DNA of 64,000 nucleotides. Source: Eubacteriales bacterium. GTDB lineage: Bacteria; Bacillota; Clostridia; Christensenellales; UMGS416. The notes beneath the pieces are model-generated. The model made no database searches. It was not told where the DNA came from and saw only the letters and a list, made by a program, of their open reading frames with translations. The DNA lies in the NCBI GenBank assembly GCA_040883315.1, contig JBFLKU010000029.1, forward strand, positions 1 to 64,000. The letters are read 5' to 3'. The position numbers were made by a program, and so were the translations under genes. Every line of letters begins with the position of its first letter. Within the stretch, counting starts at the first letter, position 1. Positions 1 to 57,098 of the stretch are shown in pieces.

Positions 1-2028
1 GCTTTTCTCATTCAGCCTGTGTATCAGGTGGATAGAGCTGTCTATGCCAATTCCTATTATCAGCGGAAATGCCGCGATGCTGAAAACATTTATTTCTATA
101 TTAAGTATTGGAAGCAGCCCCAGAGTGGTGTACAGGGTCATCACCAGCGGAGTTACAGTCAGCAGAGCCAGCATTATTTTTCTGAAAAGCACAATGGATA
201 TTATCAGCACTATTGCAAAGCAGAAAATACTTATTTTAATAATGTCTTCTTTCACCAGCTCAGTTATTTCATTGAATACCGTCGGCATGCCTACAGGGTA
301 TCTGCCTGATGCTTCATATATCGCATCAATCAGCGGCTCGTATTCATCCCTTGCATACATGTTTACAGCAGGCACTATCTCTGCACGCACTCTGCCGTCC
401 TTGCCTAAATAATTGCTCTTTATGCTCTCTGGCAGGTCATCTGTGGTCATCTCCTCAAGTGTGAATTCCCCAAAGACATCCATACCCATCTGCTGCAGCA
501 TAGCATCGAGGCGGGTGATAATATCCAGCTTGTATTCCATATCCTCGGGCATATAGTCGAATATGCTGTCTATTTGCTCGATATCTCCTCTTTGTGACAG
601 CCTTTCTGTTATCTCCTGCAGCTCATCTTGGCTTTCTCCATATATGCTGATAGTGTCGGTATTGTAGTTGAATGATTTTTTCACCTCGTCTGCCCAATAC
701 AGGCTGTGTATGTTATCGGGGTATATTGCCGCCATATCGCTCTGTATGGTGGTGCCTTTCACATTGATAAACAGTCCGCCCAGCACAGCAATCATAATAA
801 TAAATACTATCCATGGTCTTTTTATCATAAATTCGCTTGTGCTTTTCAGCCAGCCAAGACGTATGCTTTTGGCGGATTTCTCATTGCTCTTTTTGTCAAA
901 TATAATTATTATTGCAGGCACTAATATCAGCATGCCGCCGCATAAACATACCAGCCCTATGGCGGAGACCACACCCATCTGCTCGAATGCACGGAATTTC
1001 GCGAAGGCAAATGAAGCAAATGCCAGTGCTGTGGTTACTGCGCCAAATATTATGGAGCTGCCTGTGGATTTGCTGGATATATCCACAGCTTCTTTTTTGT
1101 CTATGCCCTTTGCTCTCTCCTCCTGATAGCGTGTGAGCAGGTGAACTGCAAAGTCTATTCCCAGCCCCAGCAAAAGCAGGGCAAAGCTGACGGCGAACAT
1201 ATTTAGCGAGCCATATATTATATATGCAGCTGCCGCAGCCATCACTGCCCCCAGAACCAGCGGATAGATAGACAGAAGCGGCAGTTTCAGGCTTCTGAAA
1301 AACAGAATAAGCACCAGCAAAATCAAAACCAGAGTGACAGCCATAGTGCCAAAGAGCCCTTCGAATGCTACGGCATCTGATTCTATATCCTGTATAAATG
1401 CCCCGCCTGTAAGCCCGGAATCCAGAGCTGCAAATCTATCCTCTGATAGCAGCTGGTCTACTGTGCTGTTCACGCCGTCGTAAAAAGACTGCCTGGAGCC
1501 AAGAAAGTCTGTATTGTCCAGCCTAGGCTTTATTATCATCATGTAGTGGGTTTTGTCGTCATTCACTAGATACTCGGCAGTATCCTCCTGTGCATCCATC
1601 TGCCTCTCTATATCCTGCAGTGTTGTCTGTATGGCTATAAGGTCGCCGTTTTGCATAGCTGTGTCTATGTCGTCGTATATTTTTTTGTCTGCGTATGCCC
1701 ATGCAAAGGGCATCATCTCGTCTGTATCCACCATATACATGATGCTGTCTATGTATTCTTTGTCTTCCAGTTCATCTGCCAGCACGCTCAAGTATTGCTT
1801 TGCGGCTGCTTCAAATTCGCTGCCTGCTGTGCCGCCCTTTTGCTTTACAACCACCAGCACCTGGTCCTGCCCGTCGAAATACTTATTGAATTCTGTGGAT
1901 GCCAATAGGCTTGGGCTGTCCTTTGGCAGCATCTCCTCCATGTTGGATATTATCTCTAGCTGGCTGATAGCCAGCAGAGAAAGTGCGAATATTGCAAGGC
2001 TGATTATAAGCCTTAATTTTGCTTTCAT
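1..2028 (-). CDS. MMPL-family (RND superfamily) membrane transporter, partial (3' end beyond window start)
   Basis: Reverse-strand translation from ATG at 2026-2028 gives MKAKLRLIISLAIFALSLLAISQ... with a large periplasmic loop and two TM bundles typical of MMPL/RND exporters. RBS GGAG lies 6 nt upstream. Not in the ORF track because it has no in-window stop. It sits 9 nt downstream of the TetR gene. Confidence 0.8.
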   Translation of the reverse strand, partial: MKAKLRLIISLAIFALSLLAISQLEIISNMEEMLPKDSPSLLASTEFNKYFDGQDQVLVVVKQKGGTAGSEFEAAAKQYLSVLADELEDKEYIDSIMYMVDTDEMMPFAWAYADKKIYDDIDTAMQNGDLIAIQTTLQDIERQMDAQEDTAEYLVNDDKTHYMMIIKPRLDNTDFLGSRQSFYDGVNSTVDQLLSEDRFAALDSGLTGGAFIQDIESDAVAFEGLFGTMAVTLVLILLVLILFFRSLKLPLLSIYPLVLGAVMAAAAAYIIYGSLNMFAVSFALLLLGLGIDFAVHLLTRYQEERAKGIDKKEAVDISSKSTGSSIIFGAVTTALAFASFAFAKFRAFEQMGVVSAIGLVCLCGGMLILVPAIIIIFDKKSNEKSAKSIRLGWLKSTSEFMIKRPWIVFIIMIAVLGGLFINVKGTTIQSDMAAIYPDNIHSLYWADEVKKSFNYNTDTISIYGESQDELQEITERLSQRGDIEQIDSIFDYMPEDMEYKLDIITRLDAMLQQMGMDVFGEFTLEEMTTDDLPESIKSNYLGKDGRVRAEIVPAVNMYARDEYEPLIDAIYEASGRYPVGMPTVFNEITELVKEDIIKISIFCFAIVLIISIVLFRKIMLALLTVTPLVMTLYTTLGLLPILNIEINVFSIAAFPLIIGIGIDSSIHLIHRLNEKS

Positions 2029-2037
2029 AATGCGCTC

Positions 2038-2616
2038 CTATTTTACTGTTTTTTTAAGCAAAAATTTCAAATTCTCCTCCAAATCATCCATGCTAAAGTC
2101 CAGATCTCCTGCTACTACTTTGTCTATCAGCTCGTGTACTCCCATTATCAGGTAGTAGGCAGTAAGTGATGGATCTAAAACATCTATCTTGCCGCTTTCC
2201 TTGCCCACTTTCAGCCATTCACATATAGGGCCGTGCATTTGATAAATATATTTTTTCTCCATGTTTTCTCTGCCTAGAAAGTTTATAAACCTGACTTTGT
2301 GTATCATGCGGAGAATTTTGATGTTCTTCCGCACATAGTCCACTATATAGGTCACCATATCATCAATATCCTTTGATTCGTGCCCCAATATACGGAAGGC
2401 TTCAAACCATTTGAAGACTGGTAAGAGCTGATGATCTATAAAATGCCAGACCAGATCGTCCTTTGACTCGAAGTGAACATAAAACGTACCCTTTGCCACG
2501 CCTGCTCGATTTGTGATGTCGCTGACTGTCACTTTGCTTACGCTTCTTTCCATAAACAGCTCTTTTGCAGCCTCGACGATGGCATTATGGGTGTCTTTTG
2601 CCTTTTGTGTTTTCAT
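2038..2616 (-). CDS. TetR/AcrR family transcriptional regulator
   Basis: N-terminal HTH 'EAAKELFMERSVSKVTVSDITNRAGVAKGTFYVHF' is a TetR_N signature. Co-directional and abutting the MMPL transporter. Confidence 0.85.
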   Translation of the reverse strand: MKTQKAKDTHNAIVEAAKELFMERSVSKVTVSDITNRAGVAKGTFYVHFESKDDLVWHFIDHQLLPVFKWFEAFRILGHESKDIDDMVTYIVDYVRKNIKILRMIHKVRFINFLGRENMEKKYIYQMHGPICEWLKVGKESGKIDVLDPSLTAYYLIMGVHELIDKVVAGDLDFSMDDLEENLKFLLKKTVK

Positions 2617-4214: not shown

Positions 4215-5033
4215 ATGAGATTTGTAACCGACAACAATTTTGCAAAAAAGCATGCAGAGGAACAATACAAAATAGCCGAAGACTACTATGAAAACGGTGA
4301 GTATGAGCTGGCTGTGAAGTATTTTAAGAATGCTGCCAAATCCGGACACGCAAAATCACAAAACAAGCTAGGCATATGCTACGCCACAGGCAGAGGAGTG
4401 GTGCAGAGCTATTATAATGCCCTGCAAAGCTATATGCAGGCGGCAGAGGCAGGATACGCTGGGGCAATACACAACGTCGGCCTTTGCTACTATCATGGCT
4501 ACGGCGTAGAAAAATCCTACCCTACAGCTTTAGTATACTTCAGACAGGCTGCTGAAATGGGCTACGCAAAATCTCAATATAATCTCGCCTGCTGCTACTC
4601 CGAGGGCAAGGGAGTGCAAAAGGACGAAAAAACGGCATTTGAATGGTACAAAAGTGCCGCTAGCCAAGGCGACGCCAACGCACAGTATAGCCTAGGCGTG
4701 TGCTACCAAAACGGGCTGGGAACAGAGCCCGACTACAAAAAGGCAATAAAATGGTATGAAAACGCAGCAGAGAATGACGACGCAGTGGCAATGTATAACC
4801 TTGGCTGCATGTATAATATCGGCGGCGAAGCCGAGCAGGACGACGACATGGCACATGAATACTTCGCAAAATCTGCAGAGCTGGGATATGCTCCTGCAAT
4901 GTATAATCTAGGAATGTGCTATGAACACGGCGTTGGGGTTGACGCGGACATGGATGTTGCATTAAAATGGTACAAAAAGGCAGCCGACCTAGGCGACGAA
5001 CTGGCAGCCGAAAAACTGAATGAACTGGAGTAA
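4215..5033 (+). CDS. Sel1-repeat (SLR/TPR-like) protein
   Basis: Repeated ~36-aa units '...KSQ(N/Y)(K/N)LG(I/V)CY..G.GV..(D/S)Y..A..WY.KAA..G.A.AQY.LG.CY'. GGAGGG RBS 7 nt before ATG 4215. Confidence 0.85.
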   Translation: MRFVTDNNFAKKHAEEQYKIAEDYYENGEYELAVKYFKNAAKSGHAKSQNKLGICYATGRGVVQSYYNALQSYMQAAEAGYAGAIHNVGLCYYHGYGVEKSYPTALVYFRQAAEMGYAKSQYNLACCYSEGKGVQKDEKTAFEWYKSAASQGDANAQYSLGVCYQNGLGTEPDYKKAIKWYENAAENDDAVAMYNLGCMYNIGGEAEQDDDMAHEYFAKSAELGYAPAMYNLGMCYEHGVGVDADMDVALKWYKKAADLGDELAAEKLNELE

Positions 5034-5074: not shown

Positions 5075-5911
5075 GTGAGCACAAAGGCAAGGCTGATTGA
5101 TTTGGCTATTATAATTGTGCTGCTACTCACCGGGCTATACAGAGGGCCTGTGACAAGAAACTACAATGTAGAATCCGACAAAATACAAAACGAAATAACA
5201 ATAGCTGTGGCGGCAGACCTGCACAATCAGTTTGTGGGCGAAGACCAGCAAAAGCTGATAAAAAGGCTGGAAAAGGCACAGCCGGATATCATACTGATGC
5301 CGGGAGACATGACCAACTCCCCTTATGCAATAGACGGCATGGTCAGCTTTATGAAGCAGGCGGCAGAGATAGCCCCCTGCTACTATGTGATAGGCAACCA
5401 TGAATACTGGAGCGGTGAGTACCAGAAAATATTAGACATAGTGGAGCAAACAGGCGTGGTGGTGCTGCGCAGCGAGATGACACAGCTAGATATAGCGGGC
5501 AGCACAATAGAGCTATACGGAGTAGATGACTGGGATGCGAATATATGGGATGCCACATACAAAGAAAAAAACTGGGCTGCTCATCTGGATGAGATGTGGA
5601 CAGAAAATGATGAAAACACCTTCAGAATATTGATGAGCCACCGCCCGGAGCGAGTGGAAGACTATAAAGAATATGAATACGACCTGATAGTATCCGGGCA
5701 TGCCCACGGCGGACAGGTGCGGATTCCGTTTTTTTTAAATGGGCTGTATGCACCCGACCAAGGATGGTTCCCCAAATATGCAGGCGGCGAATACCAAATA
5801 TCTGATGCCACCACAATGATTGTGAGCCGCGGCATATATAATTACCCCAATATGCCAAGAATATATAACCCATCGGAAATTGTTATAATAACAATTTCCG
5901 GAAACAATTAA
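5075..5911 (+). CDS. Metallophosphoesterase (calcineurin-like phosphoesterase), membrane-anchored
   Basis: Motifs 'GDMTN', 'GNHEY', 'SGHAHGG', with an N-terminal TM segment. GTG start. The last about 12 codons are encoded by the first palindrome of the downstream repeat array. Confidence 0.8.
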   Translation: MSTKARLIDLAIIIVLLLTGLYRGPVTRNYNVESDKIQNEITIAVAADLHNQFVGEDQQKLIKRLEKAQPDIILMPGDMTNSPYAIDGMVSFMKQAAEIAPCYYVIGNHEYWSGEYQKILDIVEQTGVVVLRSEMTQLDIAGSTIELYGVDDWDANIWDATYKEKNWAAHLDEMWTENDENTFRILMSHRPERVEDYKEYEYDLIVSGHAHGGQVRIPFFLNGLYAPDQGWFPKYAGGEYQISDATTMIVSRGIYNYPNMPRIYNPSEIVIITISGNN

Positions 5912-6430
5912 TAACCTAAAACTGCTATCACTTCCACATGCCTGCAAAATTTATTCGTAAGAATAAATGCAAGTGCTAGCAGGCTGGATGGCGTGGAATA
6001 CACTAAAGCACAGTGGAAATCGTGATTATCACGATTTCCGGAAACAACTAAACTATCGAAACCAATATCATCTTCCACATGCCTGCAAAATTTATTCGTA
6101 AGAATAAATGCAAATGCTAGCAGGCTGGATGGCTTGGAATACACTAAAGCACAGAGGGAAATTGTTATAATAACAATTTCCGGAAACAATTAATAAACTA
6201 GGATAGCTATCATCTTCCACATGCCTGCAAAATTTATTCGTAAGAATAAATGCAAATGCTAGCAGGCTGGATAGAGTGGAATACACTAAAGCACAGTGGA
6301 AATCGTGATTATCACGATTTCCGAAAACAATTAATAAACTAAAACAACTATCACTCCCCCATGCCTGCAAAATTTATTCGCAAGAATAAATGCAAAAAGC
6401 TAGCAGACCGGATAAAAGACTTATAAGGCA
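5875..6430. repeat. Tandem array of a ~141-bp structured repeat (about 4 units plus a leading partial unit)
   Basis: Unit starts at 5901, 6041, 6183 and 6324 (period 140-142). Each unit carries CATGCCTGCA, the hairpin ATTTATTCgtaaGAATAAAT, GCAGGCTGGAT..AGCACAG and a perfect 25-nt palindrome GGAAAT[CGTGATtATCACG or TGTTATaATAACA]ATTTCC. Confidence 0.85.
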
Positions 6431-16982: not shown

Positions 16983-17048
16983 ATGAACTGAGGGATTTTC
17001 AAGGGACAAGTCCCTTGAACAGGGCATGGGGCAGAGCCCCATAACAAT
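16983..17048 (+). repeat. Dispersed double-hairpin element, copy A
   Basis: ATGAACTGAGGGAT..CAAGGGACaaGTCCCTTG..GGGGCAGAGCCCC. Homologous to copies at 39491 and 58371. Confidence 0.5.
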
Positions 17049-17128
17049 CTTTCTTGGCTCTCGGTATGTTTTTTCAAAACATTCCTGTCGCCCAGCGTAT
17101 TCCCTTTGGGAATTACTTGCCCTAATAA

Positions 17129-17960: not shown

Positions 17961-18611
17961 ATGAACAATAAAAAAACAGGACGACTAACAGGAATACTCT
18001 TTATTGCTGCTACAGCAGCCGGAGTGGCAAGCCTTTCCTTCATCAGTGTGAAAGATGGAAATGACTTCGCCGCACAAATAAACCAAAACCCCAATACCTT
18101 GCTGGTTGGTGCATTCCTAATATTGCTGATGGGAATATTCTGCAGTGCAATTGCATTTTCCATCTATCCTATGCTCAGCAAACATAGCAAAGGTCTGGCA
18201 ATAGGTGCCGCAGGGTTTCGCACAATAGAGGGCGGAATATTCATAGCATCTGCCGGCATTCTGGCAGCTATGGTGCCTGCTGCAGCATACAGCCAGGACG
18301 CAGCCGCCGTGCTGAGGATAGCACACGAAAGTGTTTCGGAAAACGCTGCCTTTGCATTCTGCGTAGGTGCACTGCTATACTACATCGGCTTCTACAAAAC
18401 AAAGCTGGTTCCAAGATGGCTATCCATCTGGGGCATAGCAGCAATAATACTGCATTTCGGTGCAAATGTATCTGTCTTCTTCGGAGCAGAGTCATTCTCC
18501 ACTGTAAATGTGATAATCAACATTCCTATAGCTATACAGGAAATGGTGCTGGCAGTATGGCTATTGATATTCGGCTTTAAAGAAGTGCCGGCACGCGAAA
18601 AAATAAACTAA
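17961..18611 (+). CDS. DUF4386-like polytopic membrane protein
   Basis: About 216 aa. The hydrophobic profile and C-terminal 'IQEMVLAVWLLIFGFKEV' resemble the DUF4386 family. Confidence 0.6.
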   Translation: MNNKKTGRLTGILFIAATAAGVASLSFISVKDGNDFAAQINQNPNTLLVGAFLILLMGIFCSAIAFSIYPMLSKHSKGLAIGAAGFRTIEGGIFIASAGILAAMVPAAAYSQDAAAVLRIAHESVSENAAFAFCVGALLYYIGFYKTKLVPRWLSIWGIAAIILHFGANVSVFFGAESFSTVNVIINIPIAIQEMVLAVWLLIFGFKEVPAREKIN

Positions 18612-18643
18612 AAAATATAAGTATATTCAGGAGGAAAAAGCAT

Positions 18644-19222
18644 ATGAAAATGCAAGAGAAAAAATTAAAGAAGTTTAACGTATATAAGAACATAACCAAT
18701 GTACTTTTTATACTAACAGTGATATTGGGAGCATTATTTTTGGTGACATCCGTTTTAGCCACCAGTTTCCTATCCGTTTCAGGATACGATGTGATTGACA
18801 TTGTCAGAAAGATTTTAACAGAAGTTAACCCGGAAGCACTAGCATTGATACCGAATAATTTCACCATACCGTATGGACTAATTATTACCGGAATAATAGC
18901 AGCTCTATTCAGTATGGCACTTACAGCCTATATCTTCAAAGCTGTGTCTATTATGTTTGGCAGAATAGTACAAGAAGAGACACCATTTACAGAAGGCGTG
19001 GTAAAAGGGCTAAAGCACATGGGAATAGCATTCTTTGTCTACACAGCAATTATATTTATAATCGGAATAATTGCAAGCACAGCTACAAACCACCCTATGA
19101 ATATGAACATTGATATTACTATAAAATGGACTTACATCATGTTTGGTCTGCTTCTATTCTCACTAGGCGAGATATTTGAATTCGGAATGAATCTGCAAAA
19201 CGACAGCGAAAGCATAGTATAA
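18644..19222 (+). CDS. DUF2975-family membrane protein (YoaS-like)
   Basis: Four-TM protein immediately upstream of a small XRE HTH gene, the canonical DUF2975-HTH pair. Confidence 0.65.
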   Translation: MKMQEKKLKKFNVYKNITNVLFILTVILGALFLVTSVLATSFLSVSGYDVIDIVRKILTEVNPEALALIPNNFTIPYGLIITGIIAALFSMALTAYIFKAVSIMFGRIVQEETPFTEGVVKGLKHMGIAFFVYTAIIFIIGIIASTATNHPMNMNIDITIKWTYIMFGLLLFSLGEIFEFGMNLQNDSESIV

Positions 19223-19234
19223 GGGAGTGATGAA

Positions 19235-19441
19235 ATGATTATAGTACGTCTGGACAAAATGATGGCCGACCGAAAGATTTCATTAAATGAGCTTTCAGAG
19301 AAAGTAGGGCTTTCCAATGTGAATCTTTCTTTGCTGAAAACCGGCAAGGTGAAAGGGATCCGCTTCAATACACTGGATGCAATCTGCGAGACATTGGACT
19401 GTACACCAGGAGATATTTTGGAATACGAAAAGGAACTTTGA
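19235..19441 (+). CDS. XRE-family helix-turn-helix transcriptional regulator (YozG-like)
   Basis: 'ISLNELSEKVGLSNVNLSLLKTGKVKGIRFNTLDAICETLDCTPGDIL'. Confidence 0.8.
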   Translation: MIIVRLDKMMADRKISLNELSEKVGLSNVNLSLLKTGKVKGIRFNTLDAICETLDCTPGDILEYEKEL

Positions 19442-19456
19442 GTATTATAAAATATC

Positions 19457-19775
19457 GAAAACAATTATCAACAAAAATATCTATAGGCTACTCATGCCTG
19501 AATGGTTAATTCCTTGGAATTAACATCACATTAGTGATTGCAGGCTGAATAGCATAGATTTAGTAAAAAGCATAGTAGATATCCTAGAATATGAAAGAGA
19601 ATCTTGAATGTTCTAGATATCACAAAACAATTATCAACAAAAACATCTATGGGCTACTCATGCCTGCATGGTTAATTCCCTGGAATTAACATCACATTAG
19701 TGATTGCAGACTGGATAGCACAGATTTAGCAAAAAGCTTACAGATATCCTATAGCATGTTCTAGATATCACAATA
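19457..19775. repeat. Two tandem copies (167 and 152 bp) of the same structured repeat family as 5875-6430
   Basis: Shared 5' 'AAAACAATTAtcAAcaAAAAcATCTAT..CTCATGCCTG(C/A)ATGG' and 'TTGCAG(G/A)CTG(G/A)ATAGCA(C/T)AG'. Internal perfect palindromes GTTAATTCCttGGAATTAAC and ATCACattaGTGAT. Confidence 0.8.
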
Positions 19776-19834
19776 ATGAAAAATGGTCCGTATGGAAAGC
19801 AATCTATACGGACCAAAAAATAAGAGGTAAAAAA

Positions 19835-20503
19835 ATGAAAGAATCAAATAAACTAAGTCTGCAGAAGGCAGGCGGAATATCCATGATATACGCAGGACTG
19901 GCATACCTAGCGATGATAGTATATTTCCTAGGGATAATAGACTATACAAGCATCACAGATGCAGGCGAAAAAATACAGCTTTTTTCACAAAACCAAGCTG
20001 GCTTCTATGTAATATATCTGCTGGGCTATGTGATTTTCGGATTGGCTTTGGTGGTTATTTCCCTGTCACTATACGAAAAGCTAAAGCAATCATCCAGCAT
20101 TACAAAAATTGCCGCAGTATATGGCATTATATGGGCAGCTCTTTTGATAGGAGCAGGCACAATATATAATAGAGGAATTGCAACTGCTGTGCAGATGTAT
20201 GCCAGCGACCCAGCAGGCGCAATAGCGTTTTTGAATGCCACTGAAGCCACAGCACTTGGCATCAGCTTTTCAGACGGCGAAATACTGGGCGGCCTTTGGA
20301 CACTGCTTATAAGCATTGCAGCAATGAAGGGAAAAATATTTAACAAGGCAATTAATTATTTGGGCTTGGTTGTGGGCACTGCAGGCATATTGTCAGTCAT
20401 ACCTGCTATCAACGAATTCGGAGGCACTGGAATATTTGGCATAGGTCAGATGATATGGTTTGTATGGGTTGGCATACTGATGCTAAAGGAAAAACAAGCA
20501 TAG
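19835..20503 (+). CDS. DUF4386-like polytopic membrane protein (paralog of 17961-18611)
   Basis: Similar length and topology. AAGAGG RBS. Confidence 0.55.
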   Translation: MKESNKLSLQKAGGISMIYAGLAYLAMIVYFLGIIDYTSITDAGEKIQLFSQNQAGFYVIYLLGYVIFGLALVVISLSLYEKLKQSSSITKIAAVYGIIWAALLIGAGTIYNRGIATAVQMYASDPAGAIAFLNATEATALGISFSDGEILGGLWTLLISIAAMKGKIFNKAINYLGLVVGTAGILSVIPAINEFGGTGIFGIGQMIWFVWVGILMLKEKQA

Positions 20504-25653: not shown

Positions 25654-26454
25654 CTATATGTTAAGGTTTTTTCTTTTGAATATATAAGCTGATAGAGCGA
25701 ATATGCACGCAGCCACAAAAAGAAGAACCAGCGACAATATTAAACCATAAGGAATATTATTGAGTATCTTGTTTGTATCTAGAAGTGTATATGGCGACAT
25801 ATATTTGAAGAACTCAACCCCGCTTCCAATCTCGGAAATAATCTTAAGCATTACAAACAGCACCGGTATGCCTGCCCCGAATGCCAGCGAATACTTGGCA
25901 TCATTAAATATGCATGATGACAAAAAGCTGACAGACCCAACTGCAATGAGCAATAGCAGAGTGACTAAGTTTAAAACCAAGAAACTGCCAATTTCCAGAT
26001 GCCCCGGCCACAGGATAGCGCATAGCACTACAATTATAGATGTAATAAATCCCAAGAGAGCAGTAGTAGAGAGAATAAAATATGCAGCCTGTGTTGTGAT
26101 TATTTTTCCTCTGGTATTAGGTGTGGATAGCAAATATGCCATTGAGCCTTTGTCAACATGTCCAGCAACCAAAGAGTTCGCAGCTATAATGGTATATATC
26201 AGCGGAAAAACCAGCAGAATAAACCCATAAAAATAGCTTGCAAGGTATGTAGTCAAATTTGTTCCTAGTCCGTCAAAGCCAAAAGCTTTTACCATGCCTT
26301 CGGGCATCATGCTGAATACAGCCTGTATTGATGCTGCATCTTCCGGATTAAACATTGCTATTGCAGCAGATACATATATCATTATCATAAATAAGATAGC
26401 GGCAAAAGGAATCCAGTTAAATTTAATATTAGCTTTCAATAATGTGCTATTCAT
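25654..26454 (-). CDS. ABC-2 family transporter permease
   Basis: Six-TM ABC-2 topology, directly downstream of the ATPase with a 1-nt junction. Confidence 0.8.
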   Translation of the reverse strand: MNSTLLKANIKFNWIPFAAILFMIMIYVSAAIAMFNPEDAASIQAVFSMMPEGMVKAFGFDGLGTNLTTYLASYFYGFILLVFPLIYTIIAANSLVAGHVDKGSMAYLLSTPNTRGKIITTQAAYFILSTTALLGFITSIIVVLCAILWPGHLEIGSFLVLNLVTLLLLIAVGSVSFLSSCIFNDAKYSLAFGAGIPVLFVMLKIISEIGSGVEFFKYMSPYTLLDTNKILNNIPYGLILSLVLLFVAACIFALSAYIFKRKNLNI

Positions 26455-27339
26455 TTATTTATCCTCCTTTGAACTATAGTATTTCATAAAGGCGTTCTCC
26501 AGTGACATCTGCTGAGAATCCAGAGAAATAACATCACACTGCAGCAGCATTTTATAAAAATCCTTAAATGGATAAACTGTAGATATTTTCACCGTGTTCT
26601 CGTTAACCTTTTCCGACTCAAATTCACTTTTCAAGATGAAATCTACATCTTTGCTGCTTCCTAAAGTCACCAAATATGTTTTTGTCTTTTGAGCTATTAG
26701 TTCCTTTACATCTTCAATTGCAGCAATACGACCATCTTTAATAATTCCTACTCTGCTGCAGGATTTCTGCACCTCTTCGAAAATATGAGATGACATCAGT
26801 ATGGTCTTTCCTTTTTTGTTTTCTTCGTCTATCAATTCAGAAAATTCAATCTGCATCAGTGGATCCAGCCCGCTTGTTGGTTCGTCCAGAATATATACAT
26901 CCGGATCATGCATAAACGCAGCAATAATTCCTAGCTTTTGTTTCATTCCCTTGGACATCTTTTTAATTTTGCCGCTCGTATCCAAATCAAAGCGTTCTAT
27001 AAGCGAATCCATACGAGTGAAATCCTTCATGCATCGCATATCGCCCATAAATTTCAAAAATTCTATGCCGTTCATTGAATCCAGCAGATTCATTTCACCC
27101 GGCAGATAGCCCACCATTTTTTGAATTTCGCAGGCATCTTTCCAGCAGTCGAGTCCGTTGATTCGGCAGCTGCCCTCAGCAGGGGCAACAAAGCCCAGAA
27201 GGCTTCTGATGGTTGTTGTTTTTCCTGCGCCGTTTGGCCCCAAATAGCCAAATACTTCACCCTTTTTCACACTGAATGTTACATCATAAATCCCCTTTTT
27301 GCTCGGATAGACATAATTCAAACCGTTTATCTCTATCAT
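26455..27339 (-). CDS. ABC transporter ATP-binding protein
   Basis: Walker A 'GPNGAGKTT', signature 'LSKGMKQK', Walker B 'ILDEPTSGLD'. Confidence 0.9.
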   Translation of the reverse strand: MIEINGLNYVYPSKKGIYDVTFSVKKGEVFGYLGPNGAGKTTTIRSLLGFVAPAEGSCRINGLDCWKDACEIQKMVGYLPGEMNLLDSMNGIEFLKFMGDMRCMKDFTRMDSLIERFDLDTSGKIKKMSKGMKQKLGIIAAFMHDPDVYILDEPTSGLDPLMQIEFSELIDEENKKGKTILMSSHIFEEVQKSCSRVGIIKDGRIAAIEDVKELIAQKTKTYLVTLGSSKDVDFILKSEFESEKVNENTVKISTVYPFKDFYKMLLQCDVISLDSQQMSLENAFMKYYSSKEDK

Positions 27340-42212: not shown

Positions 42213-43205
42213 TCATTTCTGGTTTCCAAACAGCATATCTATCATTGCCCGCTTTATCTCTTGAGTAGATGAATATTCATTAGAATACGGGGATATAGTA
42301 AACTGAATTATGTATTTTTCAGAAGTCGCTACTAGTTCATAGTCATGTTTAGAATAATACAGTTCAAATTCCTCCTCACCCATCTTGTAGTTCCCAATAT
42401 AGTTATAAAAAACTGAATCATCGCGGTTTCCTACATGTTGAAAAATATAATCAATTCGTGCCCTATTATGATCAGTTATCAAATAACTGCGTATACTGGC
42501 TGACATTTCAGTATTATAAATGCTAATATCCTTGTTGCCGCTAAACATAAGACCAAACCAATACTCTGGAAGATTAAACTCTAAATCATAAAACTGTATG
42601 GTTATATTCTCAGCCGCCGGCATATCAGCAGTGTTATCGTCTACTTTTATCATATTAGTTATTTTATTGTAAAGCTCCAGCTGAATATCCTCAAAGTCCA
42701 ACACTTCGCCTTCGCCACGCACCAATGTATTATACATATCAATAACTAAAAATCTGTCTTCCAGCTCAATCAAAGTACCAAGCCCCGCCATATAATAGGT
42801 ATCATAATTAATCAGTGTCTTATAGATATAGTGCCTTTGCAGAGCGTTATATCCATCAATTTCCGCCGAGTATATTTCCGAGTATTCGCCGGGATACAAA
42901 TCCTTGAATATCATATCCATCATTTGGTCTTGGTTGAACGCAAAGTCTTTGTGTATATAATAATAGTTTATAATGGGTTTTTCTGATGTTTCTCTGTAGT
43001 CATTACTATCTATAACCATAAAATTAAATGGCACACTAATGACTATATTATCATCTTTTACTTTTTTGTATATTAGGTTTGTGTTCTGCCCTACTAAAAG
43101 AAATATCAGAGCCAATACCAATAGTATCAGCAACATTACCAGCAATAGCCCAATGTCTATCTTCTTTTCTTCTTTATTTATGTTCTCTTCCATGTGCTTC
43201 TCCAA
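42213..43205 (-). CDS. Membrane-anchored secreted protein, paralog family member
   Basis: N-terminal 35 aa identical to the 43327 gene. 'YMAGLGTLIELEDRFLVIDMYN'. Confidence 0.6.
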   Translation of the reverse strand: MEKHMEENINKEEKKIDIGLLLVMLLILLVLALIFLLVGQNTNLIYKKVKDDNIVISVPFNFMVIDSNDYRETSEKPIINYYYIHKDFAFNQDQMMDMIFKDLYPGEYSEIYSAEIDGYNALQRHYIYKTLINYDTYYMAGLGTLIELEDRFLVIDMYNTLVRGEGEVLDFEDIQLELYNKITNMIKVDDNTADMPAAENITIQFYDLEFNLPEYWFGLMFSGNKDISIYNTEMSASIRSYLITDHNRARIDYIFQHVGNRDDSVFYNYIGNYKMGEEEFELYYSKHDYELVATSEKYIIQFTISPYSNEYSSTQEIKRAMIDMLFGNQK

Positions 43206-43326
43206 TTTCTATCTTCTGCAAAAGTTTATTTATGCAAATTACATCTGTCAAAGAAAACATAAATAGATGTTTTTAGCTTTTGCAATATGTTTTTTATCAA
43301 AATTGTGTCCAATAAGTTCTTTGTTT

Positions 43327-44322
43327 CTATTCCCCGAAAATCATCTCTAAAAGTGCCTGCTTTGGCACCTCATCCGCTATATAATCCAATTCATAGCTGT
43401 ATAGCTTTATAATAAAATAGCATTTGTCAGAGACAGCCACTATCTCCTTTCCATTGTCTATGAAAACCGTAAATGGTTCTCCGTCCAGCATGTATTCGCC
43501 TATATATTCATCGTCGTTAACAAGGTCTATGTTTTCTTTTTTATTAATATAATATTCAGTTACAACGTTTTCTGTTTTCTGAACTGCATGCCCGATAAGC
43601 ATAGCATATGAAAATTCATCATTATTAAAGCTTATATTCACTTTGCTGCTCATGAATACACTCCAATACCCAGGCAATGTAATATCCAGCCCTGCAAAGT
43701 TTACTACTGTATCGTCCGGTTCATGCATATTCGCAGTGTTGTCATGTATTTTTAGTGTGTCCATTATTTTATTATAAAAATCCAGTTGGATATCCTCCAG
43801 ATTCATGGTTTCGCCCGTTTCTACATCCACTTTTTCATAAACATTGATCACTAGGAATCTATCTTCCAGCTCTATCAGCGTAGCCAGCCCTGCCACATAA
43901 TAAAACCCCGAAATTTTCCCGCTATGGTCTAAATATATGTAATTATACTGAAGAGCATCATAGCCATCTAGCTTTCTTTTATAGATATCAGAATACTTCC
44001 ATTCATCATAAAGAATGTCTTTCATCAGAACGTTCACTATTTGCTCTTTTGTCAGCCCATAGTCCTTGTGGATGTAATAATAATGTATGTATCCGTCATT
44101 TTCATCTTCCGCTGCTTCATTGCTCTCAATCACCTCATAGCTGTAGGGCACACTAATGCGTATATTATCATCTTTTACTTTTTTGCGAATTGGGTTTGTG
44201 TTTTCCCCTATTAAAATGAATATCAGAGCCAATACCAATAGTATTAGCAACATTACTAGCAATAGCCCAATGTCTATCTTCTTTTCTTCTTTATTTATGT
44301 TCTCTTCCATGTGCTTCTCCAA
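43327..44322 (-). CDS. Membrane-anchored secreted protein, paralog family member
   Basis: Recent tandem duplicate of 42213-43205. Upstream region also duplicated. Confidence 0.6.
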   Translation of the reverse strand: MEKHMEENINKEEKKIDIGLLLVMLLILLVLALIFILIGENTNPIRKKVKDDNIRISVPYSYEVIESNEAAEDENDGYIHYYYIHKDYGLTKEQIVNVLMKDILYDEWKYSDIYKRKLDGYDALQYNYIYLDHSGKISGFYYVAGLATLIELEDRFLVINVYEKVDVETGETMNLEDIQLDFYNKIMDTLKIHDNTANMHEPDDTVVNFAGLDITLPGYWSVFMSSKVNISFNNDEFSYAMLIGHAVQKTENVVTEYYINKKENIDLVNDDEYIGEYMLDGEPFTVFIDNGKEIVAVSDKCYFIIKLYSYELDYIADEVPKQALLEMIFGE

Positions 44323-44406
44323 TTTCTATCTTCTGTAAAAGTTTATCATCTGAAATCACATCTGTAAAGATAAAAAGAGCCGACCTATGCCAGCTCATTA
44401 TTTTTA

Positions 44407-45095: not shown

Positions 45096-45911
45096 TTATA
45101 TTGCTAGGCTCTTTTTGTTGAATATTATAACTCCCAGCGAATATAGAGCTGCCGATGCCAGCACCAGACACAGGCTGACTATCATTACATATTTGTTGTC
45201 ATTCAGCACTTTGTCTGTGTTCAGCAAAGTATATATGCTGAAATATCTGAAAAAGTCCACCTTTTCACTGATGTCTGCCAGCATCTTGAACAAAACAAAT
45301 GCTATCGGTATGCCTGCCCCGAATGCCAGGGATGCCTTTGAGTCGCTGAATATGCACGAAGCCAAAAAGCTGATGCTGCTGACTGCGAGTATAATAAAAA
45401 GTGTTACCATATTCAGCACCAAGAATCTGCCTATTTCCAGATGCCCCGGGAATATTGCCTCCGATAGCCCAATCAGCACGCCAACCATAAACGAAAGCAT
45501 TGCAGTCAGGGATATTATCAAATATAGTGCCTGTGTCATTGCCACCTTTATTCGGGTGTTTGGTGTAGCCAAAATATAGGACATAGACCCTCTGTCTACG
45601 TGCTTGGCTATCAGATTGTTTGCAACTATGGATATATATATTATAGGAAAGACCAAAAGGATGAATCCATATAAGTACCCTGCCAAATATGTGGTCAGGT
45701 TGGTTCCCAACCCCACAAATCCAAAAGCCTTTATCATTCCCTCCGGCAGCATGTCAAACATTGCCTGCATTGCCGTTGCACTCTCCGGGTCGAACATTGC
45801 TATTGCTGTGGAAACATATATCATCAGCATGCCAACTATAAAAACAAAAATACCCCAGTTGGATTTCATATTGGTTTTAAATAATGTCCAGCTCATATTA
45901 TGCCTCCTCAT
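45096..45911 (-). CDS. ABC-2 family transporter permease (paralog of 25654-26454)
   Basis: Alignable to the first permease, e.g. 'MFNPEDAASIQAVFSMMPEGMVKAFGF' versus 'MFDPESATAMQAMFDMLPEGMIKAFGF'. Confidence 0.8.
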   Translation of the reverse strand: MRRHNMSWTLFKTNMKSNWGIFVFIVGMLMIYVSTAIAMFDPESATAMQAMFDMLPEGMIKAFGFVGLGTNLTTYLAGYLYGFILLVFPIIYISIVANNLIAKHVDRGSMSYILATPNTRIKVAMTQALYLIISLTAMLSFMVGVLIGLSEAIFPGHLEIGRFLVLNMVTLFIILAVSSISFLASCIFSDSKASLAFGAGIPIAFVLFKMLADISEKVDFFRYFSIYTLLNTDKVLNDNKYVMIVSLCLVLASAALYSLGVIIFNKKSLAI

Positions 45912-46779
45912 TTTCGTAGTACTTCATAAACATATTTTCCAATGTGATGTGCTCCACTTCCAGCGACTTTACATCGCACTTTGAAAGCAGTGCATAGAAA
46001 TCATTAAATGGATATGATGCAGATATTTTCACTTTTGTCTCGCCCACTTTTTGCGTGTCGAATTTGCTATCCTCTATCAGCTTCATGTCCTTTTTCTTCC
46101 CTAGTGTCACCACAAATGTCTTGGTATTTACAGAGTCTAAATCCCCGATGTTTTGAATGGTTACAATTCTTCCATCTTTTATTATGCCTACTCTGTCGCA
46201 GGATCTCTGCACCTCTTCGAAAATATGCGAGGACATCAGTATAGTTTTCCCTCTGCTTTTCTCTTCCTTTATAAGCTCCATGAATACATTCTGCATCAGC
46301 GGATCCAATCCGCTGGTTGGCTCATCCAAAATATAAACTTTAGGGTCATGCATAAATGCAGCGATAATTCCAATTTTCTGTTTCATGCCCTTGGACATCT
46401 TCTTTATCTTGCCGCTGGCATCCAGATCGAATCTTTTTATCAGCTCTTCCTTTCGGCTGGTGTCCTTCATGCCTCTCATTTCGCCAAGGAATTTCAAAAA
46501 TTCATTCCCCGTCATATAGTCCAGCATATTCATTTCGCCGGGAAGATACCCAACCATCTTTTGCAGCTCTGCGGCATTTTTTCTGCACTCCAGACCATTT
46601 ACAACCGCACTTCCGCTTTCTGCATTGGCAAAGCCCATCAGCCCGCGTATGGTGGTAGTCTTGCCTGCGCCGTTTGGACCAAGATAGCCAAATACTTCGC
46701 CTTCAGCCACACCAAAGCTGACATCGAATATGCCCTTGCCGCTTTTGTATACCTGAGTCAGGTTGTCCACTTTTATCAT
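45898..46779 (-). CDS. ABC transporter ATP-binding protein (paralog of 26455-27339)
   Basis: Walker A 'GPNGAGKTT', 'LSKGMKQK', 'ILDEPTSGLD'. Confidence 0.9.
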   Translation of the reverse strand: MIKVDNLTQVYKSGKGIFDVSFGVAEGEVFGYLGPNGAGKTTTIRGLMGFANAESGSAVVNGLECRKNAAELQKMVGYLPGEMNMLDYMTGNEFLKFLGEMRGMKDTSRKEELIKRFDLDASGKIKKMSKGMKQKIGIIAAFMHDPKVYILDEPTSGLDPLMQNVFMELIKEEKSRGKTILMSSHIFEEVQRSCDRVGIIKDGRIVTIQNIGDLDSVNTKTFVVTLGKKKDMKLIEDSKFDTQKVGETKVKISASYPFNDFYALLSKCDVKSLEVEHITLENMFMKYYENEEA

Positions 46780-54808: not shown

Positions 54809-56134
54809 TTATAAATTCGATTTTCTGATGGCGTTTTTAGCCAGCCTGATAGACTGCATCAATCTACGCCTAGATGGGCAAATAAACGTGCATGCACCGC
54901 ACTCTACGCAGTCCATGGCATTGTATTTCTTTGCCTCTGCAAACCTGCCTGCATCTGCTGCTGCCGATATTTGCAGCGGCACTAATTTCAGTGGGCATGC
55001 CTCTACGCAGCGTGCACACCTGATGCAGTTATTTATTTCATGAATTGTTGTTTCATCTTCGTTCAGTGCCAATATGCCTGATGTTCCTGCTATTACAGGA
55101 GCCTGTGTATCTGGCTGGGCTATTCCCATCATTGGTCCGCCGGATATCACCTTGGCTGTGTCGTCGCACAGACCGCCGCATGCATCGATGCACTGCTGGA
55201 ATGTAGTGCCAAAGCGCACTATCAGATTCCTAGGCTCTTTTATGCATGTGCCTGTCACTGTGACTATTCTTTCTATTAATGGCATTCCTGTGGTAATTGA
55301 TTTATAAATTGCGGCTAATGTGCCTACATTCAGCACGATTACGCCTATCTCCATAGGCAGACCGCCAGCCGGCACTCTTCTGCCTGTTAATGCGTGAATT
55401 AATTGCTTTTCTGCGCCCTGCGGATATTTAGGAGCCAGCGGAACGATTTTAATCTTTTCCTCGTTGTCTGCAAATGACTGCAGCAGCTCTATAGCGTCCT
55501 CTTTGTTGCTCTCTATGCCTATTATGCCCTCTTGCACGTCAAACATTTTGATAACAGTCTTCAAGCCCTCAATCACGTCCTGCGGATGCTCCAGCATCAG
55601 CCTGTGGTCGGCTGTCAGATACGGTTCGCACTCTGCTCCGTTTACTATTATATAGTCTATTTTGGCGTCCTTTGGAGGCATCAATTTGACATGAGTGGGG
55701 AATGTAGCACCGCCCATGCCCACAATACCCAAATCCTTTACTGCCTGAGCTATCTCTTCCTTGCTCATCTTATTGATATCTCTAGGCACTACAGTGTCTG
55801 CAACGGCTTCCTTGAAGTCGTTTTCTATCACCACTGCCAGCCTCTTTATGCCTGTTGGGTGCGGTCTGTTCTCCACCTTTATAACAGTACCAGAAACAGA
55901 CGAGTGAACATTGGAACTGATAAAGCCATCGGCTTCACCGATTAGCTGTCCTTTTTTCACATAGTCGCCCTTTTGAACCAGCGGCTTTGCCTCCTTGCCA
56001 ATGATTCTGGAAAGCGGTATAACCACTTCCTTTGGAGGCTCCAGCACCTTGGCTGCCTTATGCTCTGTTAGTGTTTTGCCATGATAAATGTGAGACAGTG
56101 GATGTACCCCGCCTTTGAAAGTCTTTTTTTTCAC
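54809..56134 (-). CDS. rnfC: Rnf electron transport complex subunit C
   Basis: 'KTFKGGVHP', NADH-binding 'GMGGATFPTHVKL' and two C-terminal 4Fe-4S motifs. Probable GTG start 56134 with AAGGAAGAG RBS (ATG 56182 lies within the putative -10 region). Confidence 0.9.
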   Translation of the reverse strand: MKKKTFKGGVHPLSHIYHGKTLTEHKAAKVLEPPKEVVIPLSRIIGKEAKPLVQKGDYVKKGQLIGEADGFISSNVHSSVSGTVIKVENRPHPTGIKRLAVVIENDFKEAVADTVVPRDINKMSKEEIAQAVKDLGIVGMGGATFPTHVKLMPPKDAKIDYIIVNGAECEPYLTADHRLMLEHPQDVIEGLKTVIKMFDVQEGIIGIESNKEDAIELLQSFADNEEKIKIVPLAPKYPQGAEKQLIHALTGRRVPAGGLPMEIGVIVLNVGTLAAIYKSITTGMPLIERIVTVTGTCIKEPRNLIVRFGTTFQQCIDACGGLCDDTAKVISGGPMMGIAQPDTQAPVIAGTSGILALNEDETTIHEINNCIRCARCVEACPLKLVPLQISAAADAGRFAEAKKYNAMDCVECGACTFICPSRRRLMQSIRLAKNAIRKSNL

Positions 56135-56313
56135 TTTTTTCTCTTCCTTACCATAAAATCTCCGCTTTGCGCCTATATGCACAAAGCAAATTTATTATAG
56201 CATAGTTTTTTTTAAAACTCTATAATTGTGAATTTGTTATCAAAGTGTTTAAATTATTGGAAGGGTGTGGGAGGTGTTAACATAAATATTATAGCAGAGT
56301 GGCTTCCTTTATA

Positions 56314-57087
56314 TTAAAATCCTCCGTTTTGATTTGTGCTAATTATTTCTTTTAATTTCTCTATAGTTAAAGTATCATTTCTTCTTCTGTGTATCATTCT
56401 ATGGCAATTAGAACATACTGGTACAACATTTTTTAATGCACTATCAATAAACATATTGGCATCTTGCTCTTCATATGTATATATTGGCTTTTGATGATGT
56501 ATCTCTATGTATCCATCACCTCTAGCTCCATATTTAGCTTTAAAATCAAATTTACAAGCATCACATAAAATTACGCCATTATGCGTGTAATATTCTATCG
56601 CAATATTTCTTAGTTTAGCTGACCTTTCATATACTTTATTTCTTATTGTTTTTCTGCTTCCCTCATATACAAAAATATTTTCATCATATACTAAAGGTTT
56701 TCTTTTTCTCTCGATTGAATCTGTAATCTCTACTAATGTATCTTCTATATCTATATTTTCAAAATCATTGTCTATCAAATATTCGAAAATATCTTTGTTC
56801 TGTTCAATATACTCTTTCCCTTTTTCTGTAATAGTATGCGAACCATTCCTTTGCCCTTTAATCGTTGTATAGCCTAGTTGGTCGTCAAGTTTATGATGGG
56901 ATACCAAATTCCTAACAATTTGGGTGAATCTTGCATCATTCCTACTTCCGTAGTTTTTTAAATCTTCTCCCGTTGGATTAATTAAATTTGATAATTCCAA
57001 AATCAAGTCACTAGTTTTTATATTCGGATTATTACTAATTACATACAAAGCCGGAATTACTAATTCTTTTTCAGAAACTCTAGACAT
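56314..57087 (-). CDS. HNH-family endonuclease, candidate Type II restriction endonuclease (AT-rich island)
   Basis: C-terminal 'CDAC...GYIEIHHQKPI...VVPVCSNCHRMIH' HNH. An 11-nt gap separates it from the upstream MTase gene. About 28% GC versus about 48% in the flanking DNA. Confidence 0.7.
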   Translation of the reverse strand: MSRVSEKELVIPALYVISNNPNIKTSDLILELSNLINPTGEDLKNYGSRNDARFTQIVRNLVSHHKLDDQLGYTTIKGQRNGSHTITEKGKEYIEQNKDIFEYLIDNDFENIDIEDTLVEITDSIERKRKPLVYDENIFVYEGSRKTIRNKVYERSAKLRNIAIEYYTHNGVILCDACKFDFKAKYGARGDGYIEIHHQKPIYTYEEQDANMFIDSALKNVVPVCSNCHRMIHRRRNDTLTIEKLKEIISTNQNGGF

Positions 57088-57098
57088 TATCTTCTCCT

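Follow-up and report, generated by a model that had tools for sequence, protein, structure and literature searches.

A rare family of structured intergenic repeats arranged in tandem in a Christensenellales genome

On contig JBFLKU010000029.1 (assembly GCA_040883315.1) of an uncultured Eubacteriales bacterium from the order Christensenellales we found two intergenic arrays of a single repeat family, here called family A, within the first 64,000 nucleotides (nt) of the contig, a stretch hereafter referred to as the window. Locus 1 (5875-6425) carries four units and locus 2 (19412-19834) carries two, and the copy count for the source genome covers this 64-kb window: two loci and six units. Each unit is predicted to form a branched hairpin whose helices are kept by compensatory changes, and both arrays contain copies of the 3' end of the gene that lies upstream of them. 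We give about an even chance to the reading that family A represents lineage-restricted structured intergenic repeats, similar to repetitive extragenic palindromes (REP), bacterial interspersed mosaic elements (BIME) and BOX elements, which were amplified in tandem, are cotranscribed and act in cis on operon mRNA.

A preliminary description of the window had proposed that locus 2 is a second locus of the same repeat family, and this was borne out: the stretch 19457-19775 holds two units homologous to the four at 5875-6425. With a hidden Markov model (HMM) built from the locus-1 units only, both locus-2 units were the top matches (E 9e-5 and 1.5e-4, model positions 3-123), and the reciprocal search with the locus-2 HMM against locus 1 (leave-one-locus-out nhmmer) gave E-values from 4.4e-7 to 2e-3. 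The concern had been raised that the resemblance might be confined to low-complexity A-rich sequence. This was checked and is not the case, since the alignments over model positions 3-123 cover nearly the whole unit. The two shared blocks named in that description are likewise real. Perfect or nearly perfect clusters of the 5' block CATGCCTG(C/A)A are confined to the six units of the window, and the 3' block GCAG(G/A)CTG(G/A)ATAG had 8 matches versus 1.5 expected, 5 of the 8 being in the two loci; conserved blocks cluster nowhere else in the 64 kb.

A family A unit is about 115-125 nt long with a GC content of 0.38-0.44. It opens with an A-rich 5' block, (G/A)AAACAAyTA...CTAT...CAT, and ends with the 3' block CUGRAUAG and an A-rich tail. 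Each array is a head-to-tail series of units, co-oriented with the genes on either side, that lies in the interval from the upstream stop codon to the ribosome-binding site (RBS) of the gene that follows. Full units of locus 1 are 86-93% identical to one another and the two units of locus 2 are 91% identical, forming a 166-nt direct repeat. Tandem Repeats Finder reported periods of 141 (3.8 copies) and 283 (1.9 copies) in locus 1, where the 283-nt super-period reflects the alternation of two versions of a 25-nt perfect palindrome from one unit boundary to the next; the fourth unit of this array is degenerate towards its 3' end. No inverted repeat is formed by the unit ends (GGAAACAATT... and ...AAAGCACAGT), and neither terminal inverted repeats nor short target-site duplications were found. 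The sole repeats flanking the units are 25-49-bp copies of the terminal hairpin of the upstream gene. The absence of a conserved peptide, also noted before, was upheld: open reading frames (ORFs) starting from the conserved ATG translate to MPAKFIRKNKCKC, MPEWLIPWN and, in a relative, MPTSQFGRIDITK. A coding reading was rejected, as the ATG within CATGCC opens ORFs of 9-13 codons in which only Met-Pro is conserved and which lack a Shine-Dalgarno sequence.

For the structural analysis we aligned the cores of the six window units with one unit of another organism (contig L005), an alignment referred to as A3. The resulting fold is a branched hairpin with an outer stem, P1, in which C-A-(U bulge)-GCCNNN pairs with NNNGGC-U-G, and an 8-bp stem, P2, with the invariant motif ATTC-N4-GAAT and a GNRA or CUUG tetraloop. 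A further stem, P3, is optional and consists of ATCAC/GTGAT in locus 2 and the L005 unit, with two possible pairs left in locus 1. In A3 87% of the cells were paired versus 23-43% when the 3' partners were slid by 1-3 columns. P2 was 100% paired with three of its eight pairs changed on both sides, and two pairs of P1 were also changed on both sides. The covariation score was reached by 0/500 shuffles, a statistic that is inflated by the relatedness of the sequences, and RNAalifold run on longer unit alignments independently predicted P1 and P2 with 5 compensated pairs. Individual units fold far better than shuffled sequences (z -2.3 to -6.6), as does the whole array (z -9.9). In single units the 5' block (CTATC...) was also predicted to pair with the 3' block (GATAG...), forming an extra helix that showed no consistent alignment.

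These results agree with two statements of the preliminary description, namely that a conserved outer GCCTG/CAGGC stem encloses the hairpins, and that the element is a folded multi-stem structure. The palindromes listed there are also present: GTTAATTCC/GGAATTAAC at 19505-19524 and 19671-19690, ATCAC..GTGAT at 19525-19538 and 19691-19704, and GATATCC..TAGATATC at 19578-19621 and 19743-19769. The claim that the internal hairpins differ entirely between the loci, as if modules had been swapped, is not supported as stated. P2 is one homologous helix that aligns column for column with ATTC-N4-GAAT invariant, and since it is kept by compensatory changes it was not swapped between the loci. P3 is common to locus 2 and L005 and merely degenerate in locus 1. 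Pairwise identities among the three subfamilies are similar (53-63%), yet CATGCC, ATTC-N4-GAAT and GGCTGGATAG are kept in all of them. Preservation of the same helices and unpaired motifs across subfamilies implies selection, or the spread of an already constrained element.

The loops of P2 bear on the strand that carries the function. On the + strand they read GUAA (three times), GCAA and GGGA, all of the GNRA class, as well as CUUG closed by C-G, and CCUG, while their minus-strand complements (UUAC, UUGC, UCCC, CAAG and CAGG) belong to no stable or favoured loop class. Three GNRA sequences and a canonical CUUG in only three deep lineages would be hard to get by chance. Because of this asymmetry the loop bias points to a cotranscribed + strand RNA, on the strand of the flanking genes. 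Folding energy is indifferent in this respect, as both strands of the array fold far better than shuffles (z -9.9 and -7.3), which is expected of any palindrome-rich DNA.

The large hairpins between the units have a different origin. In locus 1 the true end of a metallophosphoesterase gene (5075-5911; ...SEIVIITISGNN*) is made up of GGAAATTGTTATAATAACAATTTCC and the GGAAACAATTAA that follows it, so that the first hairpin of the array, H0, is genuine coding sequence (EIVIITIS). Conservation of this C-terminus extends over 15 homologues, the most distant of them 42% identical, and the palindromes within the array are copies of it. The gene-end hairpin is stronger than about 97% of synonymous recodings in the window (5875-5899), in L005 (2080-2104) and in the orthologue L008 (~4818-4842), where the strength is achieved through two G-U pairs on the + strand. 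We also observed that the conserved C-terminal peptide E-[IV]-V-[IV]-I-T-I-S of this metallophosphoesterase family has an intrinsic potential for palindromes or hairpins at the codon level. In locus 2 H0, which had been overlooked in the preliminary description, covers the last codons and the stop codon (19439-19441) of an HTH_26 gene (19235-19441). The H1 region is identical to H0 at 36/49 positions, the loop and the stop-codon region included, while the best sampled ungapped 49-nt window elsewhere reached 25/49. H1 is a diverged pseudo-copy of the 3' end of the HTH gene, with H0 as the template of the inter-unit hairpins of locus 2. The big hairpins therefore differ between the loci because each is a local copy of its own upstream gene end and not an exchanged module. 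In both loci the repeated segment consists of gene-end hairpin plus unit, with the left edge at, or no more than 4 nt from, the 5' base of the hairpin. Since the inter-unit hairpins are gene-end copies, the arrays probably grew by tandem duplication of this segment.

Relatives of the source organism provided further evidence. On L005 one family A unit was found at the locus-1 site, 3' of a 75%-identical metallophosphoesterase orthologue, with P1 as GCCGAC/GTCGGC (compensated), P2 as TCAATTC-GGGA-GAATTGA and P3 as ATCAC-GAA-GTGAT. This unit is followed by CTGGATAG, a second copy of the gene-end hairpin and 16 nt. A second unit then begins and is interrupted, where P1 should start, by a different structured sequence (family B), so that the apparent 'core swap' would most simply be explained as a nested insertion of family B. 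Orthologues of the metallophosphoesterase at 61-66% identity had no family A core downstream; one of these loci, L006, retains a stretch resembling the 5' block (leave-out E 0.0033), with a different long hairpin after it. For locus 2 an empty site was found in L022-L024, where the stop codon of the HTH gene and the start of a 59%-identical DUF4386 gene are 24 nt apart with no array between them. These three loci keep the order DUF2975-HTH-DUF4386, followed by an alcohol dehydrogenase and a second DUF4386 gene. The contig of a 72%-identical DUF4386 orthologue breaks 8 nt upstream of the gene, and for the beta-phosphoglucomutase downstream of locus 1 there was no close orthologue (best 64%).

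Family B has copies at 16990-17125 (+) in the window and at 2270-2424 (+) and 1-215 (-) on L005, the last being inverted and at the other contig end, so that both ends of that contig are bounded by it. It shows a conserved TCGCCCAGCGTAT-[hairpin]-ATTACTYGCC arrangement with a covarying stem (TTCCC/GGGAA, ATATCGC/GCGATAT, ATATCAC/GTGATAT) and a second covarying hairpin (ATGTTTT..AAAACAT and variants). Its sequence is unrelated to family A, and it had no Rfam match and no viral match. As family B occurs in the same genomes, the lineage carries several structured repeats. A possible third locus of family A just past the window end (contig ~64157-64286, minus strand; positions 1-130 of L020, where a contig of the Logan assemblies starts) looked alike by eye, was not significant in leave-out nhmmer and was not counted. 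It shows a hairpin AGAAGGCTTCAC-GAA-GTGAAC..CCTTCT and then an A-rich block ending in GGCAACACATTGT, which resembles the family A 5' block and especially its L006 version.

Database searches yielded no known counterpart. Rfam 15 at the gathering threshold gave 0 matches over the whole window, permissive E-values gave only unrelated families for both loci (best sub-threshold E at least 0.47), and L005, L006 and L008 also had no Rfam match. Family A is absent from the catalogued RNA families and was previously uncatalogued. Hammerhead and other small-ribozyme cores were rejected by reading of the sequence and by the lack of Rfam matches. A strict three-block pattern returned 0 matches in genome contigs and 0 in viral contigs; the 2 matches in metagenome contigs lay within long coding-like sequence and were not the element. 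A relaxed core pattern returned 4 matches in genome contigs versus about 4 expected by chance, and none in viral contigs. One of the four (L011) lies inside a 157-aa ORF and lacks P1 complementarity, and the other three had no match to our covariance model R1. The source organism itself is absent from the genome and metagenome collections that were scanned by DNA pattern. With blastn (word 11) locus 2 had no match in plasmids and locus 1 none in phages, and R1 together with the HMMs detected no further family A core over the window and 24 fetched loci. Family A is real and, judged from these searches, very rare.

How might such arrays act? Intercistronic RNA structures that shield the upstream message or create processing points are treated in passages of PMC2817692, PMC3049150 and PMC2229807. 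For family A, we suggest that the array would be read through with the operon as + strand RNA and that its stable, modular structures would influence this mRNA in cis, by blocking 3'-5' exonucleases and/or by providing processing sites that uncouple the upstream from the downstream cistron, much as has been proposed for REP/BIME and BOX elements. Protection of the upstream message and/or creation of processing points would then change the relative expression of the neighbouring cistrons. Amplification would have proceeded by local tandem duplication that carried the stop-codon hairpin along, and the family might persist as a semi-selfish repeat.

Several points weigh against this reading. The covariation is based on few events in three independent subfamilies from two genomes, and relatedness inflates the shuffle statistics. 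Three non-Watson-Crick positions in P1 (C-A in the fourth unit of locus 1 and the second unit of locus 2, A-C in the former) become G-U on the minus strand and would slightly favour the opposite strand; both units are the 3'-most of their arrays and the former is visibly degenerate. The conservation of unpaired CAUGCC and CUGGAUAG at about 55-60% overall identity suggests a partner (protein, ligand or catalysis) of greater specificity than expected for a generic stability element. Classical traits of REP/BIME and BOX, namely alternating orientation, terminal inverted repeats and short target-site duplications, are not found, and transcription, strand and cis effect are what we infer from the sequence.

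Two alternatives appear unlikely, to the same degree, and still deserve attention. Firstly, the array might be a polycistronic precursor of small RNAs (sRNAs) that act in trans or bind protein, each unit being a discrete RNA with an A-rich single-stranded 5' region and a branched hairpin, and the perfect inter-unit hairpins serving as sites for a double-strand- or hairpin-specific endoribonuclease. Conserved unpaired nucleotides and GNRA/CUUG loops across 53-63% identical subfamilies would fit this idea, as would the independent folding of the units and the long perfect stems of 11-12 bp between them. Tandem multiplication is typical of dosage-driven sRNA families such as LhrC and Qrr. Furthermore, the locus-1 palindrome at 6157-6181 holds a perfect extended -10 promoter element, TGTTATAAT, on the + strand (6163-6171, within GGAAATTGTTATAATAACAATTTCC, and again at 5881-5889), placed so that a transcript would begin at the 5' block of the next unit. 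This element is, however, missing from the alternate palindrome version of locus 1 and from the hairpins of locus 2, promoter and terminator scans detected no consistent promoter or U-tailed terminator per unit, and no conserved partner gene lies nearby.

Secondly, family A might be a DNA-level element, a small non-autonomous mobile or recombination substrate with hairpins in single-stranded DNA, that would integrate at or next to stop-codon-proximal hairpins; the flanking copies would then represent a long target duplication, comparable to the copying of a CRISPR repeat when integration is staggered. The presence of at least two unrelated loci in one genome and the empty site in a relative are consistent with mobility. 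Locus 2 has n units and n+1 hairpins (H0-unit 1-H1-unit 2-H2), the first unit of L005 likewise stands between two hairpin copies (H0-unit-H'), and in every locus examined the duplication begins, on its left, no more than 4 nt from the base of the 5' arm of the gene-end hairpin. C-GAA-G, a loop of very high stability in DNA hairpins, is present in P3 of L005 as well as in L020, and assemblies break at family A repeats. On the other hand, locus 1 has 4 hairpins and 4 units, as simple tandem duplication predicts, and in L005 and locus 1 the duplication takes in about 16 nt of the family 5' block, which also fits tandem duplication better than a target duplication. The window genes checked yielded no transposase, integrase or HUH domain, terminal inverted repeats other than the palindromes are absent, and GNRA, UUCG and CUUG loops speak for RNA-level selection.

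A more far-reaching possibility, to which we assign a small probability, is that family A is new in kind. It could be an element that spreads to stop-codon hairpins and duplicates the whole hairpin, by a staggered CRISPR-adaptation-like or a cruciform-directed process, and/or its branched hairpin (CAUGCC / AUUC-GNRA-GAAU / GGCUGGAUAG) could be a new functional RNA, i.e. a ribozyme or a protein- or ligand-binding module, made from tandem arrays. This small probability for a truly novel function is retained because unpaired CAUGCC and CUGGAUAG are conserved.

The position of the arrays had also been taken to imply a role for the downstream genes, and 10-60 nt do separate their ends from the co-oriented RBS downstream; the branched hairpin has conserved junction nucleotides, and tandem riboswitches are known. 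We nevertheless consider a cis-regulatory leader (tandem riboswitch or attenuator) of the beta-phosphoglucomutase and DUF4386 genes highly improbable, because these genes are functionally unrelated and the DUF4386 orthologue in a relative follows the HTH gene at 24 nt without the element. The arrays start inside or at the stop codon of the upstream gene, and the L005 unit is followed by another repeat and not by a gene start. Four near-identical serial copies are unlike riboswitch organisation, and neither an expression platform (terminator or RBS-sequestering helix) nor an Rfam class match was detected. There is equally little to recommend a functional minus strand, on which an intrinsic terminator or the end of an antisense RNA would be formed by the long P0/P1 hairpin and, after it, the U-rich 5'-block complement (GUUUUUGUUGAUAAUUGUUUU): the U-rich tract directly follows the long hairpin in locus 2 and L005, the three C-A/A-C mismatches of P1 turn into G-U, and a near-consensus sigma-70-type promoter, TTGATA-16-TATAAT (11/12), lies at 19471-19444, but the P2 loops are none of the favoured ones, no minus-strand gene is there to be terminated, the U tract of locus 1 is about 10 nt away from the stem, and the terminator scan flagged inter-unit hairpins weakly and nothing in locus 2. 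This promoter-like sequence combines the complement of the unit 1 5' block with the 3' arm of H0 and faces the HTH gene in the antisense direction.

The coordinates of both arrays are given in Table 1. The last hairpin upstream of the DUF4386 gene (19835-20503) had been placed at 19793-19822, which is wrong; sequence and inverted-repeat search locate its core at 19785-19814. The extended hairpin lies just 5' of the RBS AAGAGG (19822-19827), is outside the repeat family and, when read on the minus strand, is followed by AUUUUUCAUU.

Table 1. Positions of family A arrays and associated hairpins in the window
Feature	Position	Strand	Description	Evidence
Locus 1 H0	5875-5899	+	Perfect 12-bp palindrome GGAAATTGTTAT-A-ATAACAATTTCC	Sequence, inverted-repeat search
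Locus 1 array	5900-6425	+	Units 5900-6014, 6040-6156, 6182-6297, 6323-~6425	
Locus 1 hairpin copies between units	6015-6039, 6157-6181, 6298-6322	+		Repeat searches
Locus 2 H0	19412-19456	+	Imperfect hairpin, 21-nt arms, 81% complementary	
Locus 2 unit 1 (family A)	19457-19577	+		Sequence, repeat search, covariance-model R1 match 19485-19560 (76.1 bits)
Unit 1, 5' block	19457-19492		A-rich	
Unit 1, P1 5' strand	19493-19500		Within CATGCCTG	
Unit 1, P2	19505-19513/19516-19524		8-bp stem 19505-19512/19517-19524	
Unit 1, P2 tetraloop	19513-19516		CUUG, closing pair C19512-G19517	
Unit 1, P3	19525-19529/19534-19538			
Unit 1, P1 3' strand	19541-19547		CAGGCTG	
Unit 1, 3' block	19548-19577			
Locus 2 H1	19578-19621	+	Inter-unit hairpin GATATCCTAGAA...TTCTAGATATC after unit 1	
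Locus 2 unit 2 (family A)	19622-19742	+		R1 match 19651-19726 (77.2 bits)
Unit 2, CATGCC	19659-19664			
Unit 2, P2	19671-19679/19682-19690		8-bp stem 19671-19678/19683-19690, loop CCUG 19679-19682	
Unit 2, P3	19691-19695/19700-19704			
Unit 2, GCAGACTGGATAG	19706-19718			
Locus 2 H2	19743-19769	+	H1 copy shortened by internal deletion, stem base GATATCCTA/TAGATATC as in H1	
Separate 13-bp hairpin	19785-19814 (core), 19784-19815 (extended)	+	Core GGTCCGTAT/ATACGGACC	Inverted-repeat search, sequence

No domain of a transposase, integrase, reverse transcriptase, Cas protein or toxin turned up among the window genes checked (Pfam, most larger ORFs) or in the gene tables for the Logan contigs; the Pfam results for the window genes also included no HUH or RAYT/Y1_Tnp-type domain and no defence domain. 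The short-read assembly of the organism breaks inside the locus 1 array. A spurious minus-strand ORF of 93 aa (5908-6189) spans this array, and its 78-aa version is recorded as predicted protein P0121, an annotation artefact; a search of the 93-aa sequence against 1.84 billion representative proteins returned only this 78-aa call of the organism itself. Around locus 2 (17961-20503) two genes for DUF4386 membrane proteins (17961-18611 and 19835-20503) flank the DUF2975-HTH_26 pair. Elsewhere in the window tandem paralogous genes of about 330 aa without a Pfam match (42213-44322) are 87% identical over 252 nt (43000-43251 / 44117-44368), and both Logan contigs end in this paralogue region. An ABC-transporter pair with an adjacent TetR regulator is duplicated (25654-27339 and 45096-46779). 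The region 56000-58300 has a GC content of 0.29 and encodes a D12-class (Dam-like) DNA methyltransferase (57099-58262, -) next to a 257-aa ORF without a Pfam match; it may be a horizontally acquired restriction-modification or orphan methylase island.

Among known systems REP/BIME and BOX come closest. REP/BIME of enterobacteria and pseudomonads (see PMC2817692) are extragenic, mostly intercistronic or in 3' untranslated regions, cotranscribed and often clustered, combine palindromic hairpins and conserved linkers in mosaics, and are thought to stabilise upstream mRNA and to modulate operons. Family A is similarly extragenic, co-oriented and intercistronic, with a + strand stop codon upstream and a + strand RBS downstream of both arrays. 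REPs are single hairpins of about 35-40 bp in alternating orientation that are linked to RAYT transposases. In contrast, family A units are branched hairpins of about 120 nt, all six units and the hairpin copies stand head to tail, the inter-unit hairpins copy a local gene 3' end and not a genome-wide consensus, and no RAYT domain was found among the window genes checked. BOX elements of Streptococcus pneumoniae (boxA-boxB(n)-boxC) are described in passages of PMC3049150 as modular, with a basic element of <200 bp, a variable number of copies of an internal module and predicted extended stem-loops when transcribed; they are cotranscribed with neighbours, confined to a narrow lineage, probably parasitic, and dispersed at >100 copies with terminal inverted repeats and target-site duplications. 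Family A, too, occurs in a Firmicute, is <200 bp and AT-rich, is predicted to form a stem-loop RNA and has a module, P3, that is present or absent between subfamilies. It differs in that it lacks terminal inverted repeats and short target-site duplications, repeats whole units in tandem and not one internal module, and is unrelated in sequence. On these features family A is a member of neither group, as it departs from them in orientation pattern, terminal inverted repeats, short target duplications and sequence.

Other tandem repeat systems are more distant. Type III toxin-antitoxin systems (ToxI-type) have tandem structured RNA repeats of about 34-40 nt, 5' of a co-oriented gene for a ToxN/AbiQ-type endoribonuclease, which are processed into units. 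Family A also forms tandem structured repeats immediately 5' of a co-oriented protein gene, but its periods are 141 and 166 nt and the downstream genes encode a HAD/beta-phosphoglucomutase and a DUF4386 protein. As in CRISPR arrays, palindromic repeats alternate with intervening segments, n+1 repeats accompany n inserts, and assemblies break. However, the 'spacers' of family A are homologous to each other (86-93% in locus 1, 91% in locus 2) and are the conserved part, while its 'repeats' differ between the loci; no cas domain was found among the genes checked, and the Rfam CRISPR-DR models had no match. Integron attC sites differ as well, as no GTTRRRY/RYYYAAC occurs at the unit/hairpin boundaries and no integrase was found among the genes checked.

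In view of the conserved unpaired nucleotides the RNA may have a specific function, the evidence coming from two genomes only. As a practical warning, family A arrays break short-read assemblies and yield spurious ORF calls. If our reading is right, family A would be an uncatalogued addition to the small set of structured intergenic repeats of Firmicutes, with two unusual traits: a conserved three-way-type core with GNRA/CUUG loops that is maintained across species by compensatory change, and arrays that carry pseudo-copies of the 3'-terminal hairpin of the upstream gene.

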